A DNA stretch of 64,000 nt from Shigella phage ESh27, in sequence record ON528737, one strand, 5' to 3'. The notes below the pieces were generated by a model. The model saw nothing but the letters and a program-made list of their open reading frames with translations, made no database searches and was not told the DNA's origin. This document shows, piece by piece, positions 32,986-39,503 of this stretch. Both the position numbers and the translations under genes were made by a program. Position 1 is the stretch's first letter, and the number at the start of each line of letters is the position of its first letter.

Positions 32986-33196
32986 TTCTAAAGCAGATTA
33001 TTTTAATTCTGTTAATGATAAGAATAAAGCTTTAATTCGCCACTTTATTACTGAGATGGGTTATACTGACTCTAAAGATTTGAAAGAACACATTATCGAA
33101 TGTTCTGTGGCTAAAAAGTTTTCTTTTACCGATAAATGTTTAAATGAGGTTATAAATCATTATGAACAATCTTGTAGCAAAACACGATTTCAATAA
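32969..33196 (+). CDS. hypothetical protein
   Basis: 75 aa; overlaps upstream ORF by 17 nt. Confidence 0.35.
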   Translation: MMRIIDSKADYFNSVNDKNKALIRHFITEMGYTDSKDLKEHIIECSVAKKFSFTDKCLNEVINHYEQSCSKTRFQ

Positions 33197-33270
33197 GGCT
33201 TCCGTCCATAAGGACAAGAAGAAATCGGAACTTCAATCTAAACGTAAACAAAAACATAAGGGTAAAGACT

Positions 33271-33558
33271 ATGCTTACTAAAATCAAAGAAAATCCTGCC
33301 ACTGAACTTGTTATTCGATGTGAAGAACTTGCAGAGCTTTATCAGGTTAACCGAGAAGTATATCGTAGTGTTGTTGCCGATATGGCAGACGAAGTATGTT
33401 CTCGTATTCCTTTTAGTGTCGATTTCAATCATATGAAGCCTGGTGAAATCACTATCGTATTTGGTTCTGACTATACTGAAGAACGGGCTTTTAATGTCCT
33501 AGAATATGAAATGTCATTCTTTGACATACAGGACTACATTGATAGTTATAAGGAATGA
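33271..33558 (+). CDS. hypothetical acidic protein
   Basis: 95 aa, strongly acidic; lies in the arn/asiA neighbourhood. Confidence 0.45.
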   Translation: MLTKIKENPATELVIRCEELAELYQVNREVYRSVVADMADEVCSRIPFSVDFNHMKPGEITIVFGSDYTEERAFNVLEYEMSFFDIQDYIDSYKE

Positions 33559-33559
33559 T

Positions 33560-33721
33560 ATGAGCCATAATCTTCAGAACGTAGTAGAGGCAGAACGTGA
33601 GCGTGAGGCTTTAGTCTATAATGAACTATTAGCCACGTTCTTGGCCTTACACTCGTATGAACAAGAAGACTACACTGATTACGTTAAAAGTGTAGAAAAA
33701 GCTGTTTACAATCAACACTGA
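33560..33721 (+). CDS. hypothetical small protein
   Basis: 53 aa from ATG 33560. Confidence 0.3.
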   Translation: MSHNLQNVVEAEREREALVYNELLATFLALHSYEQEDYTDYVKSVEKAVYNQH

Positions 33722-33767
33722 TAATGGTACTATAATCGTATCAACCAAATGGAATGAATAAAACGTT

Positions 33768-34040
33768 ATGAATAAAGATATTGAAATTGTACGTGAAATT
33801 ATTACTGTTGCTTCTATTTTGATTAAATTCTCGAGGGAAGATATTGTTGAAGACCGAGCAAATTTCATCGGATTCTTGAATGAGATTGGAATTAAAAAAG
33901 ATGGTCGACAGCTAAATCAGAGTTCGTTCAGAAAACTAATTACAAATTTAACTGCCGAAGAAAAGAAAACACTGATTAGTGAATTCAATGAAGGTTTTGA
34001 AAATATTTATCGCCATTTGACGATGTATTCTAACAACTAA
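33768..34040 (+). CDS. asiA: AsiA anti-sigma70 factor
   Basis: 90 aa; REIITVASILIKFSREDIVE...EFNEGFE block characteristic of AsiA. Confidence 0.85.
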   Translation: MNKDIEIVREIITVASILIKFSREDIVEDRANFIGFLNEIGIKKDGRQLNQSSFRKLITNLTAEEKKTLISEFNEGFENIYRHLTMYSNN

Positions 34041-34700
34041 TTATTTAGCCCGCCCTAATATCCTTGCTGCTTGGTTGCATATTGCAGCCAAGCGTTCTTC
34101 ATTTAACACATCCGACCCCTTATACCAATACATAGAAACAGTTCCAGCATATATGTTATCCAAATTGAAGTAAGGACAACTATACATATATGCCAGTTCC
34201 GGAGTTTTTGATTTGGTAGGTAAGAAAGCAAAATCTGTTTTAGAAGTAAAGTGAAGTCCACTTAAATGGACCGAATACTCTGCTGTCGTTTTATCGACAG
34301 GAAATCCTCCCATAGATTTTTCAGTTACTGTGCTAGGTAACTTACCTTCATACGCAATAAGGTCGACGAAATAATTTAGATTTTTAGGTCTGAAAGAATA
34401 CACCGAACTAAAATCCGCCCTTGATGTGACGTGGACTATTTGTAGTTGTTCTAAAGCCGCAGATTCAAATCGTGTATTTCTTTCTTTTTGAATTACTTCT
34501 GTGTAAGTATCATATTTCGACCTCACGTAATAATCCATAAAAATATTCCCCTTGTACCATATTAGTGCCATTAGGAACAAAAGAACTACAACAGCAACTC
34601 TGGAAATAAGAATATTTCCAGAGGCGTTATCTTTGAAAATGCGGTCTAGCAACCCAAATAAAATATCACTAAGCGAAAATGATATTCTAGGTGCTGCCAT
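34041..34700 (-). CDS. t: holin T
   Basis: 219 aa; N-terminus MAAPRISFS, one TM then large periplasmic domain; C-terminus ARILGRAK; late promoter upstream. Confidence 0.9.
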   Translation of the reverse strand: MAAPRISFSLSDILFGLLDRIFKDNASGNILISRVAVVVLLFLMALIWYKGNIFMDYYVRSKYDTYTEVIQKERNTRFESAALEQLQIVHVTSRADFSSVYSFRPKNLNYFVDLIAYEGKLPSTVTEKSMGGFPVDKTTAEYSVHLSGLHFTSKTDFAFLPTKSKTPELAYMYSCPYFNLDNIYAGTVSMYWYKGSDVLNEERLAAICNQAARILGRAK

Positions 34701-34718
34701 AGACCCTCCTTTTAAGGA

Positions 34719-34726
34719 TATTTATA
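34719..34726 (-). promoter_or_regulatory. late promoter for holin t
   Basis: TATAAATA on minus strand (plus TATTTATA), 19 nt upstream of t ATG; SD AAGGAGGG between. Confidence 0.6.
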
Positions 34727-34745
34727 TGCTGAGAGGTATTACCAT

Positions 34746-35525
34746 TTAAATCCAGGAACCATAGATCGTGCCTGTTGCACCCCATGACGGTGAACTTCCG
34801 AATACTGCTCTGCCAGGAGCACCGCCACCAGATCTAGATAAGTGATTACCCCATCCATCTCCGCCCCGACCTCCAGCATCGCCGCCATTGCCTCCGCCGA
34901 ATTGGGAAGTGTAACCGGCGCCGCCCGGGGCGTCATAACTAGCATTACCACCCGGCCAATTAACACCACCGCCACCGAGACCAAATGGTCTGCCACCGCC
35001 ACCACCAGCTGTAGCATTTGGCGCCCAGCTATTCTGTAATGACACTGCACCACCACCGCCACCGCCTGATGCAATAACGCCATAGTTCCAAATACGAAGT
35101 CTTCCGCCGATATCATTTTGGATTACATCGCCGCCATTTGTGCCTGGGTTTCCGTTTACAGTACCGTTACCACCTCGTCCCCACATATGAACACCGCCGT
35201 GAATATTCAAAGTGACATATTCGTTAGGAGTATCACCATACATGAAGAATAAAGGAACGTCTTTAGAATATGATACCAAATTTCCGGTGATATTAAACAC
35301 TATAGGCGCACTACCTGCCTCAAAACATCTATCTCGGAACCATTGACCATTGAAGTTATGGTCTGCTCCAAGTGTGTGAATAATTTCTCTTGAGCGACCT
35401 GCAAATTGACTCATCCAGCAAGGAACACCCAATCTTAATTGACCAGCTGCTTGACTCATCCAGCGCTGACCCGTTTCATTTACGGCTGAACTTCCAATCC
35501 AGCCAGGAACTCCAACTACTGCCAT
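34746..35525 (-). CDS. 38: gp38 tail-fibre tip adhesin (T2-type, glycine-rich motifs)
   Basis: 259 aa; conserved N-terminus [13 protein letters not shown]; C-terminal half with poly-Gly runs separated by short variable segments. Confidence 0.85.
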
Positions 35526-35561
35526 AATTTATACTCCAAAGGGGGCATTTCCCCCTTGTTG

Positions 35562-38500
35562 TTAGAATTTAAAATATTTACTAATTTTGCGAGCAATTTT
35601 AGTAAAGAGAGGCGTTTTCAATTCTTTAATTTCTTCGCTCATTTCCTGAATGGCCTTAATTAAAAGCGCGTTCACTGCGGAGTTTGAAATTGTTAAAATT
35701 TCTTCTGGGTTATCCTGAGATCCGACACTAGAAGTGCTAACAGCTTCCGGTAATACTTCTTGCAAATCCTGTGCGATAATACCAATCTCATGGCCGATAA
35801 CTTCGCGGTCAGAAAGAGATTTAACTTTATCATAGGTTTTAACTTTGAGTTTATTTACCTTATCCACCGCATTCTCTTCGTAGTCTTCGACATTAATTTT
35901 CAGACGACGGTCAGAACGAATATAAACGTCGTTACAATATACAGCAGCACCAGCAGTAAAATCACCGTTAGATGCAAATGCATAATCACTCCCACCCACA
36001 TGCAATACAACATGAGGATTACCACCGCCAGCATGAACACCCATCGCCGCAAGGTGCTGTTCGCCCCAATGAGTAGCTTTCCAAATGTTATATGCTTGAT
36101 TTCGTGAGTCCTGACAGTCTACCAACAATCCAGCCGGACGGTCTCGCCAGTCTACCCATGCACCACCGGAAATATTACCACGGATAAGAGCGTATTCACT
36201 ATTATATGGAACACGCTCTCCCGCTAGAATCATTGCACCCTGGAAGTGATGACTAAATGAACCACCATGATTATTGTGAATATGTAAAATACCCTCATCT
36301 GTAGCCCAGATAACAGCCTTTTCTGCATCGCTATCATCTCTAAACCAGATATGTCGTGCACCAGTTGAGTTTTTGATGGTTATTCCGTTAGGTCCATGCA
36401 CGGTCAAAGCACCAGCAACATCAAACATCAAACTGTTATCTGTCCTGCGTTCAGCATAGAAGTGATAACCTTTTGAATCGCCGACTTCCAATACTGCCGC
36501 GCGACCAACTTCTGAATTTCCCCAATTGTTGATAGAGAATCGTTCAGAGCTATTATTCATCTGATTTAGGTATAATGTACCATCAGTGAATGTTTCGCCA
36601 AAGAAACGAGTTTTAATTGCACCTGTCGCTAAAGTACGTTCAGTGGAAAAATGAGCGCCTTGACTATCTTCTAACTGGATGATGTTATCACGACCATTAT
36701 TACTATCACCCCAATGGTTAAATTTAAAATAATCTCGTGATCCTAAACGTCCCGGGTCAAAAGTCATCACGCCTTTCATGTTAATATCACCGCTGACCAG
36801 AACGTTATCTGGGAAGTTAACAGTACCGTCTTGATTAAAACGAGACGCATGGCCTTGTGAACCATCTTCTTTCAGATGATGAATAACGAATGTACCTGAT
36901 TCAATTTCGGTACCTAAAGACCAAACGGATTTACCGTTTAAAAACTTCTGTTTAACAATAGGATAATATTTGCTTACAGCGTCATCATCGATTTCCTGGA
37001 AAATAGGAGCCGCTTGAACATATTGAATGTCATAACCGCCGGCACCCGCTCCATGACCAACAAATTTAATATAGCCATTCGCAGCAAACGTATTGTAACT
37101 TGATTGTAAATCTGGAATAGTAACTTTACCGGTATCTAAAGCCATACTAAACGGGCGAAGTGGACCGATATCACCATGTTTACCTTCACCATAAGCAGTT
37201 GGAATAATATGAAGACTGCCTTCTGAACGTCTAAAAATGGCTCCATAATCTGCGTTCCAAATACGAAGAGCATTCACTGCTCCAGATGAAATTTCACCTG
37301 TTGTGTGAACTCCTCTATCTCCAGCAGTAACACCAGATGATTCAAATGAACCATTAACGTTCATTTCTACTTCGCCAGTAGTAAGTCTTTGAATATAGCT
37401 CATCCAGCTAGTTGCATCAGAAATTTCCATAATGTTTTTACGGATACCTCCGCTTGGATCAACAAACGTATTACCCCAAACTTTAATATCCATATTATCA
37501 ACCGAGCTGTATCCTGTTGTGTTGCCTCTAAACATTAGTGTAGAAGAATTATTTCTACCATCTATATTAACAGAACCACCAATAACGTCAATATTACCAG
37601 GAGTAACTAACAAACCGCCATGAGTATTAATGTTTGTGGTACCCTTGCCGCGGAAATAATGATGATAGTTACCGCCTTGATAATATCCTAAAAGAGTTTG
37701 ACCATCGCCGTATGCGTTATTATCATGGTAAGTAACAACAGTGGCCAAAGCATAGTTTTCTGTCGGTGGCGTTGTCATAAGAAGCCCATCTGGAGAATAA
37801 CCCATAACCATTTTTCTAAGGCTTTGTGTTTCCGCAGGACCGTAAATGAAAGTTTTTGTTCCGTTGTTTACTGTATGGAAATATCCATCCTGATGCCACT
37901 TAAATCCGGTATCATTATCACCAAGAACAATTGAGGCCGTTCCTAATTCAGAATATCCTTTTGGACCACCTGGAAGACCTACAGCGATAGAATGACCGGC
38001 TTTCAATCCACCGGACCAGGTAAACGACCAAAGATAAGTGTCTAAGCCATCTCCGGAATACCAGGTTATTCCGTCATTAACATTAACTTCGTGGAAAATA
38101 CCTGCTCCTACAGCATTTCGCATAACACGGAGGTGGTTAATAGCCGTTTCGCTTTCTGCCAATGGAGTGTTATTTGATAATGAATAGATGTCATAATCGC
38201 CTGTCTTCTTCCCATTTGTAATAACTTTGTCGGTCAGAATTTGTGGAGACGAAATAGATTTCCATGCTGATACTTCAGGTGAAGTAAATAGTCCACTGCC
38301 CGAAAATGCATAGGTGCTTTCATCACCAGCGGCGTAGTCTTGAACCCTGATATTAAGTACTTGTGTAGTTAAACCATCATTAGCCGGGGCATAAATGATT
38401 CCACGTTCGCGACTATTGTTATCGAAAAAACGAACATGTGCTGTACCTGAACTTTTTGTAATAAGTTCACCGCCTTCAGTCATAATCTGCCCAGCGGCAA

Positions 38501-38795
38501 TAATATCACGAGTTACTCGAGCAATACCAGTTAAATTAAAATTACCTGTCTGAGTGAAGACACCATTTAAAGTATAATCGCCAGTTTGGTTATAATTACC
38601 TGTATGAATAACATTCCCGTCAATACTACCGCCTTTAGCAAAACCCAGATCAATAATATTTCCTTGGTCATCTTTAGTAAAAAGTACACGGTCTTTTAAG
38701 TTTATAGCCAATTCACCTTCGGCTAATACTGAAGCGGCAGGACGTGCTCCTGCAGTTTTGCTTCTTTTAAATTGTATTTGTTTTAAAGTAGCCAT
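35562..38795 (-). CDS. 37: gp37 long tail fibre distal subunit
   Basis: 1077 aa; N-terminus MATLKQIQFKRSK; C-terminal chaperone-like tail. Confidence 0.9.
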   Translation of the reverse strand: MATLKQIQFKRSKTAGARPAASVLAEGELAINLKDRVLFTKDDQGNIIDLGFAKGGSIDGNVIHTGNYNQTGDYTLNGVFTQTGNFNLTGIARVTRDIIAAGQIMTEGGELITKSSGTAHVRFFDNNSRERGIIYAPANDGLTTQVLNIRVQDYAAGDESTYAFSGSGLFTSPEVSAWKSISSPQILTDKVITNGKKTGDYDIYSLSNNTPLAESETAINHLRVMRNAVGAGIFHEVNVNDGITWYSGDGLDTYLWSFTWSGGLKAGHSIAVGLPGGPKGYSELGTASIVLGDNDTGFKWHQDGYFHTVNNGTKTFIYGPAETQSLRKMVMGYSPDGLLMTTPPTENYALATVVTYHDNNAYGDGQTLLGYYQGGNYHHYFRGKGTTNINTHGGLLVTPGNIDVIGGSVNIDGRNNSSTLMFRGNTTGYSSVDNMDIKVWGNTFVDPSGGIRKNIMEISDATSWMSYIQRLTTGEVEMNVNGSFESSGVTAGDRGVHTTGEISSGAVNALRIWNADYGAIFRRSEGSLHIIPTAYGEGKHGDIGPLRPFSMALDTGKVTIPDLQSSYNTFAANGYIKFVGHGAGAGGYDIQYVQAAPIFQEIDDDAVSKYYPIVKQKFLNGKSVWSLGTEIESGTFVIHHLKEDGSQGHASRFNQDGTVNFPDNVLVSGDINMKGVMTFDPGRLGSRDYFKFNHWGDSNNGRDNIIQLEDSQGAHFSTERTLATGAIKTRFFGETFTDGTLYLNQMNNSSERFSINNWGNSEVGRAAVLEVGDSKGYHFYAERRTDNSLMFDVAGALTVHGPNGITIKNSTGARHIWFRDDSDAEKAVIWATDEGILHIHNNHGGSFSHHFQGAMILAGERVPYNSEYALIRGNISGGAWVDWRDRPAGLLVDCQDSRNQAYNIWKATHWGEQHLAAMGVHAGGGNPHVVLHVGGSDYAFASNGDFTAGAAVYCNDVYIRSDRRLKINVEDYEENAVDKVNKLKVKTYDKVKSLSDREVIGHEIGIIAQDLQEVLPEAVSTSSVGSQDNPEEILTISNSAVNALLIKAIQEMSEEIKELKTPLFTKIARKISKYFKF

Positions 38796-38803
38796 AAGTC
38801 CTC

Positions 38804-39460
38804 TTAATAATAGCCGAAATCTTGAACAGAATCCTTAATAACAATTTGGTCAAATCGTGGAACATGCGAGGGTTGAGATGCAGGATTCTGTGAGAAAAAG
38901 TTTGGGGCTGTTAGAGCGCCGGTCATCGTATCTCCTGAACGGAGTACGCGACTGTTTGCATTAGCATTAACTGTATTTATTTGACTATCAACATAATCTT
39001 TGCGAGTAAGGTCGTAATTATTTAAAGGTGCTAACGTTGTGGCTCTGAATTGAGATGCTTCAATAACGCCTTTAGAACTTATATTACCGGTGCGAGTATC
39101 AATTACAACAGTTCTTTCACCGGTACCTTGAGATGATTTAAACCCAATACCATACCACGAAACAATATCCATGTTTGTTTGGTCGAATGTCGCGGCGTCA
39201 CCACCACCAGAAAAAATACCATTCGTTTGGTCATCTGCTGTTTTGACTGCAACACCTTCGTTAAAGATTACCTTTTTGAGATATGTCCCGCCGTTTGCTT
39301 TAGATACGAAATCGTTATCAGCCGCTTTTGGCTTGTTATATTCAGTGTATAATTTAAATGTTTTATATAGGATGTCATCGCCAGCTGGCATTAAAGGAAA
39401 ATTGCCTTGATGCCATATGACGGAACCACCAACTGTACTTCCGGCTTTTAAATCGGCCAT
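38804..39460 (-). CDS. 36: gp36 long tail fibre hinge/small distal subunit
   Basis: 218 aa; order 34-35-36-37; late promoter upstream. Confidence 0.75.
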   Translation of the reverse strand: MADLKAGSTVGGSVIWHQGNFPLMPAGDDILYKTFKLYTEYNKPKAADNDFVSKANGGTYLKKVIFNEGVAVKTADDQTNGIFSGGGDAATFDQTNMDIVSWYGIGFKSSQGTGERTVVIDTRTGNISSKGVIEASQFRATTLAPLNNYDLTRKDYVDSQINTVNANANSRVLRSGDTMTGALTAPNFFSQNPASQPSHVPRFDQIVIKDSVQDFGYY

Positions 39461-39487
39461 TTCGTGTCTCCTTATTAATATTAAAAG

Positions 39488-39495
39488 TATTTATA
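39488..39495 (-). promoter_or_regulatory. late promoter for gene 36 (and 37-38)
   Basis: TATAAATA on minus strand between gp35 stop/terminator hairpin and gp36 ATG. Confidence 0.6.
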
Positions 39496-39503
39496 CGCGA
39501 AAA

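Follow-up and report, generated by a model that had tools for sequence, protein, structure and literature searches.

Two unrelated proteins carry the name gp38 among the T-even phages. In T4, the virion does not contain gp38, and receptor binding is a task of gp37 itself (PMC6851490). In phage S16, three tryptophans of gp38 dock into pockets of gp37 (PMC6851490), and T2, the archetype of the adhesin family, uses FadL as its receptor (PMC3157838), or OmpF in some reports. The hypervariable segments (HVSs) that Trojet et al. described in these adhesins (PMC3157838) are, in the literature, the elements that contact the receptor and determine host range, and the crystal structure of PP01 gp38 defines five loops, A-E, at W119-I124, Q161-V170, N184-W189, N204-Y209 and N225-S231 (PMC12892980). 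Both modular exchange and the prediction of receptors from gp38 phylogeny are concepts that were published before (PMC3157838 among the sources).

The window analysed here is a stretch of 64,000 nucleotides from Shigella phage ESh27 (sequence record ON528737), in which gene 38 corresponds to exactly one open reading frame, with an ATG start, 259 codons, a TAA stop, and a GGAG Shine-Dalgarno sequence 8 nt 5' of the ATG (Table 1). It lies directly downstream of gene 37, and the gene order 37-38-t is common to the window, T2, T4, Bas46 and phiC120. The gene 37 product is of the T2 type, ending in a Peptidase_S74 domain, and its residues 923-1061 match the gp37 chain of S16 as crystallised together with gp38 (6f45_A, E 7e-16); an SDRRLK motif starts at Ser961, with 117 residues from there to the C-terminus, and cleavage of gp37 is predicted at this serine. 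In the 36 nt that separate the stop codon of gene 37 from the ribosome-binding site of gene 38 there is a GC-rich hairpin (AGGGGG-AAAUG-CCCCCU, 35540-35556, minus strand; MFE -15.8 kcal/mol over a 56-nt stretch, z = -1.9), which may stabilise or attenuate the transcript, or may affect how gp38 is translated relative to gp37. On the other side of gene 38 a perfect copy of the T4 late-promoter consensus, TATAAATA, is found at 34719-34726 (minus strand), 18 nt 5' of the ATG of the holin gene t and followed by AAGGAGG; it is the position alone of this copy that is suggestive, as the seven matches in the whole window are no more than chance would give (7.1 expected).

Table 1. Features at the gene 38 locus of the ESh27 window, ordered by position
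Feature	Coordinates	Strand	Basis or remark
Gene t (holin)	34041..34700	-	Pfam Phage_holin_T, E 3.6e-88; downstream neighbour of gene 38
Artefactual ORF, 125 aa, +1 frame of gene 38	34739..35116	-	In Gly-rich part
Gene 38, T2-type long-tail-fibre tip adhesin	34746..35525	-	ORF; Pfam GP38 and Gp38_N; identity with Bas46 gp38
Glycine-rich motif / hypervariable segment region, residues 116-243; predicted polyglycine-II sandwich with receptor loops	34797..35180	-	Gly and entropy pattern; superposition on 9v85 and 6f45
HVS4 / loop E, residues 223-232	34830..34859	-	Aligns with PP01 N225-S231; variable
Artefactual antisense ORF, 65 aa	34842..35039	+	In Gly-rich part
HVS3 / loop D, residues 203-209 (AGYTSQF), with Gln208 at 34902-34904	34899..34919	-	Aligns with PP01 N204-Y209
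Loop C, residues 186-191 (GGVNWP)	34953..34970	-	Aligns with PP01 N184-W189; variable
HVS2 / loop B, residues 160-173	35007..35048	-	Aligns with PP01 Q161-V170
Longest poly-Gly run, G154-G159, GGT/GGC codon repeat	35049..35066	-	Glycine-run count
Loop A, residues 122-127 (TVNGNP)	35145..35162	-	Aligns with PP01 W119-I124; high entropy
Beta-helix domain, N-terminal part, residues 47-115	35181..35387	-	Model strands 48-115, pLDDT 94-97; aligns to PP01 and S16 gp38
N-terminal attachment domain, residues 1-46, with Trp9, Trp22 and Trp37	35388..35525	-	Pfam Gp38_N spans 1-42
gp37 C-terminal intramolecular chaperone domain, residues 961-1077	35562..35915	-	Peptidase_S74 at 961-1019, E 1.3e-14
Gene 37, distal long-tail-fibre subunit, 1077 aa, trimer bearing gp38	35562..38795	-	ORF; Pfam; 6f45_A match

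The gene 38 product passes the Pfam curated cut-offs (25 bits for each) of both T2-type adhesin profiles, PF05268 (GP38, 'phage tail fibre adhesin'; E 2.3e-83, 279.8 bits, full-length profile coverage) and PF21721 (Gp38_N; E 1.4e-20, 73.4 bits), and its sequence matches in the PDB are gp38 of PP01 (9v85, E 1.6e-73) and of S16 (6f45_D, E 5.5e-48). Homologues were found by tblastn in 807 phage records, the top match being gp38 of the Mosigvirus Bas46 (ChristianSchoenbein, MZ501056; QXV76924.1), which is 100% identical over all 259 amino acids and annotated as 'adhesin tip for distal long tail fiber'. T2 itself has the same gp38 Pfam architecture, the same gene order and the same Peptidase_S74 domain in gp37, although its gp38 is only 52% identical overall and matches at 25 of the 69 residues of the beta-helix part. 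The sequence family, the predicted fold, the gene context and the pattern of conservation and variability observed here show gene 38 to be a T2-type gp38 adhesin, and the preliminary description was right to name it so, given the two Pfam profiles, a model fold like that of two solved adhesins and a T2-type gp37 partner. No observation speaks against the assignment. As it is a previously deposited allele of a well-characterised family, this is confirmation and not discovery.

Glycine accounts for 65 of the 259 residues of gp38, with 13 in residues 1-110 (12%) and 52 in the 149 residues from 111 to 259 (35%); if the 8.6% Gly of six neighbouring proteins is taken as the background rate, the binomial probability of finding at least 52 glycines among 149 residues is 3e-19, and with the rate of the N-terminal half of gp38 itself it is 2e-13. 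There is one run of six (154-159), one of five (174-178), one of four (184-187) and two of three (210-212 and 233-235), together with nine GG pairs, and the GC content, which is 37.8% in the window, is 50% in gene 38 and 56% in its codons 111-259. When conservation and entropy are measured per column in an alignment of 111 gp38 homologues, the Gly runs and their flanking motifs (GRGGNG; GGxxIxNxxGxxLRIxNxGxI; GGGGGRPFG) are invariant or nearly so, and the entropy maxima lie between the runs, at residues 122-130, 160-173, 186-191, 203-211 and 223-233. These five variable segments align with loops A-E of PP01 gp38 (HMMER alignment to 9v85) and also correspond to the published scheme of HVS1-4 and GRM1-5 (PMC3157838). 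The alternation of poly-Gly runs with short non-Gly segments in the C-terminal half, read from the letters in the preliminary description, is thus recovered by an alignment of the kind it had proposed for locating hypervariable segments, and the segments it took to be receptor-contacting, host-range loops coincide with those described as such in the literature. One refinement is needed, in that the loops differ between allele classes and are almost invariant inside the class to which this allele belongs (dN/dS 0.00-0.05 for residues 116-243 against eight relatives).

Loop B has both the highest entropy and the lowest pLDDT (64) of its domain, and is identical to that of RB51 at all 14 positions and to that of T2 at six. 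In phage SQ17, a 6-nt duplication in loop E / HVS4 gives LSRSRSG in place of LSRSG (residues 229-232 of the window protein, 34830-34841); this SR duplication slightly alters the length of a receptor loop, in an allele that is near-identical in other respects. The G154-G159 run is the counterpart of PGII helix 3 of S16, 151-GGGGGGGG-158 (PMC6851490). Tandem repeats at the DNA level were considered as a driver and rejected, the sole array reported by Tandem Repeats Finder being a weak 19-nt, period-6 CACCGC array under the six-glycine run (35048-35066), with no long repeat.

An AlphaFold2 model of gp38 built from the homologue alignment (mean pLDDT 86.6, pTM 0.81) has low confidence solely at residues 1-17 and in loop B, the former being expected in the absence of gp37. 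A Foldseek search of the PDB with this model returns gp38 of PP01 (9v85_C, E 8e-27, TM 0.91, rmsd 1.8 Å) and of S16 (6f45_D, E 7e-22, TM 0.82; TM normalised by target) and no other match below E = 3. The glycine-rich motifs and loops A-E can be aligned among the three proteins, although PP01 and S16 have other loop sequences and use another porin, OmpC. A beta-helix with a polyglycine-II sandwich is therefore the predicted fold, its geometry judged from the Foldseek superposition alone. In the attachment domain, Trp9 and Trp22 are at least 90% conserved in the 111 homologues, and in an 11-sequence alignment Trp22 and Trp37 are invariant and Trp9 is at least 90% conserved.

By homology with S16 and PP01, we infer that gp37 would fold and trimerise with the aid of its own C-terminal intramolecular chaperone domain (~117 residues from Ser961), which would then be cleaved away. 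Gp38, one monomer per tip, would dock on the exposed end of gp37 by its three-helix N-terminal domain (residues 1-46, with Trp9, Trp22 and Trp37), and the remainder of the protein would form a beta-helix whose two glycine-rich excursions pack as polyglycine-II helices in a three-layer sandwich, with the invariant Gly runs as its scaffold. The five non-Gly segments (~122-127, 160-173, 186-191, 203-209 and 223-232) would then be distal loops in contact with a porin's extracellular loops, and would determine host range; the receptor of this allele would most probably be OmpF. [quoted passage not shown]

The preliminary description had singled out the T4-type gp38 family, a gp37 assembly chaperone absent from the virion, as the alternative to its adhesin assignment. 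The genes share their name and their position between 37 and t, and nothing more, but some GenBank records of identical or near-identical alleles (KY703222, MW882907, KM407600, MH992122 and OR525701 are examples) are labelled 'long tail fiber assembly chaperone/catalyst'. The best BLASTP alignment of the window protein with T4 gp38 (AAD42461, from AF158101) has an E of 0.99 over 14 residues, which amounts to no sequence similarity, and T4 gp38 is without a Pfam match whereas the window protein matches the adhesin families. The partner protein differs in the same way: window gp37 ends in Peptidase_S74, as do those of T2 and S16, and lacks the Collar and Phage_fiber Pfam domains that form the tip of T4 gp37, which for its part has no Peptidase_S74 chaperone domain. 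Direct comparison with T4 gp38 and T4 gp37 thus rules out a T4-type chaperone, and with a predicted fold that is also that of the solved adhesins we give this reading virtually no credence; the GenBank label is a propagated mis-annotation of a function that belongs to the unrelated T4 protein. A second departure from a single adhesin gene would be that one of the two ORFs overlapping gene 38, the 125-aa ORF in the +1 frame or the 65-aa antisense ORF, is a real gene. The gp38 Gly codons are GGT, GGC and GGA alone, which in the +1 frame read as GTG, GCG and GAG and never as a stop, and this frame contains seven stops in nucleotides 1-330 of gene 38 and none beyond nucleotide 401. In 2000 synonymous-codon shuffles of gene 38, scored for the longest stop-free stretch, the +1 frame remained open over 82 ± 21 codons and 4.3% of shuffles reached the observed 125, placing the ORF in the upper tail; the frame moreover stays open for 108-127 codons in each of eight close relatives. 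However, 4.3% is not significant given that five frames were tested, conservation of the Gly codons accounts for the persistence in close relatives, and in T2 the frame is open over just 53 codons. The antisense ORF is about as long as the average shuffle (65 codons observed against a mean of 67, with 51% at least as long), and a Pfam search of both ORFs gave no match for either. Substitutions point the same way. Gene 38 differs from that of Bas46 at 40 nucleotides, 38 of them at codon position 3, with no amino-acid change, yet within the +1 ORF each of the 23 changed codons, though synonymous in gp38, is non-synonymous when read in the +1 frame, as are 13 of 14 changed codons when read in the antisense ORF; against NC-G, 55 of 58 are non-synonymous in the +1 frame, and five relatives other than Bas46 have the same pattern of synonymous change in gp38 and non-synonymous change in the overlapping frames. 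The shuffles, the substitutions and the absence of any Pfam match together rule out these ORFs as genes, so that a genuine overlapping gene has hardly any likelihood, and they uphold the earlier claim that the Gly codon repeats create artefactual ORFs on both strands: the overlapping ORFs arise as a by-product of GGN repeats, which are poor in stops.

The receptor of gp38 is very likely to be OmpF. The BASEL supplementary table gives OmpF as the primary receptor of Bas46, whose gp38 is identical, and of Bas38 and Bas47, whose gp38 proteins are both 95% identical overall; a literature search on Bas46 together with gp38 found nothing, and the Bas46 receptor is taken from that table. FL33, with a gp38 98% identical, and FL31 and FL34 (92%) are OmpF-dependent as well (Lutz et al., PMC12032242); for the phages cited here OmpF dependence means plating on deletion mutants rather than direct binding of gp38 to OmpF. 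Bas46, Bas38, Bas47, FL33 and RB51 share the receptor-binding module of the window protein. Within residues 116-243 Bas38 has one substitution relative to the window, and across the binding domain the OmpF-dependent Bas38, RB51 and FL33 are 0-3 residues away. A different receptor (OmpW, FadL, Tsx, OmpA or OmpC, for example), or a second one in addition to OmpF, would have a precedent in RB51, which is OmpF-specific and is switched to OmpW by a single change, Q206L, in HVS3 (bioRxiv 10.64898/2026.04.02.716166); all five RB51 loops are nevertheless identical to those of the window, and the specificity-switching Q206 is kept as Gln208. T2, with its loops B, D and E partly similar (6/14, 3/7 and 4/10 identical), uses FadL, and FL31, FL33 and FL34 show an extra tolC effect (PMC12032242). 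Against these stand the identity with Bas46 gp38 and the near-zero loop identity (0-4 residues per loop) with the Tsx phage T6, with M1, FL08 and AV119, which use OmpA, and with an S16-like phage (OmpC being the receptor of S16), and we consider a receptor other than, or in addition to, OmpF to be unlikely. OmpF as the preferred receptor does not imply the same host range as that of Bas46, since in some 100-residue blocks the two gp37 proteins have an identity of 58-92%.

The relationships of the window phage differ along the fibre. Over 33000-39500 the closest DNA match is the Mosigvirus phiC120, at 97.6%, and gp37 has at least 90 identical residues in every 100-residue block against phiC120. 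Against Bas46, gp37 identity ranges from 58 to 100% per 100-residue block, with 58 of 100 in alignment columns 201-300, 85-100 in the other full blocks and complete identity in the final 77-column block. As gp37 is nearly identical to that of phiC120 and gp38 is identical to that of Bas46, the shaft and the tip adhesin have different nearest relatives, and the 40 nucleotide differences in gene 38, the divergent gp37 and the closeness to phiC120 together make the window phage distinct from Bas46. Relative to Bas46, gp37 is itself mosaic around residues 200-300.

Gp38 is likewise a recombination mosaic as judged by sequence comparison. Its attachment domain (residues 1-46) is identical to those of T6 and M1 at 45 of 46 positions and to that of RB51, a Tequatrovirus and hence of a different genus, at only 27, the RB51 domain being two residues shorter; residues 47-259 are identical to RB51 at 210 of 213 positions and to T6 at 132. 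These comparisons refine the assignment, in that gp38 is at the sequence level a chimera, with an attachment domain like that of T6 and M1 and a receptor-binding domain like that of RB51. Codons 1-46 are identical in DNA to those of Bas46 and SQ17 (dS 0), all 40 synonymous differences from Bas46 falling in codons 47-259, and have a dS of 1.6-1.9, from few sites, against Shf125875, Bas38 and RB51; for codons 47-259, dS is 0.23-0.34 and dN/dS 0.01-0.05 against phiC120, Bas46, SQ17, Shf125875, Bas38 and RB51, the last five being at roughly the same distance from the window (dS 0.26-0.34). The different dS of the two parts indicates two modules with different histories and a junction near the linker. 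In window coordinates the junction between codons 46 and 47 lies at about 35387/35388. The allele is found in Mosigvirus, Tequatrovirus and Dhakavirus phages. Gly-codon repeats are the usually proposed recombination hotspots. There is about an even chance that codons 47-259 are instead a sequence-frozen OmpF cassette that moves between these three genera independently of the attachment module, by crossover at the linker near codon 46 and not at the Gly-codon repeats, with the 'hypervariable' loops under strong purifying selection.

A further observation concerns phage Bp7, whose 'long tail fiber assembly catalyst' (263 aa) leaves the gp38 family after about residue 222 and continues as '...GIITYLD..LAVVLLVERYSEV...', a tail that resembles the translation of the window +1-frame ORF (34739-34870). 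The Bp7 protein probably results from a frameshift in the Gly-codon region, whether a mutation or an error of sequencing, after which translation reads on through the stop-free alternative frame.

The relevance of these findings is chiefly to annotation, and they raise no fresh question. The label that fits the gene is 'long tail fibre tip adhesin gp38 (T2 type), predicted receptor OmpF', and neither of the overlapping ORFs should receive a gene call. For phage therapy and the prediction of host range, the allele places one further Mosigvirus-like genome in the OmpF class.
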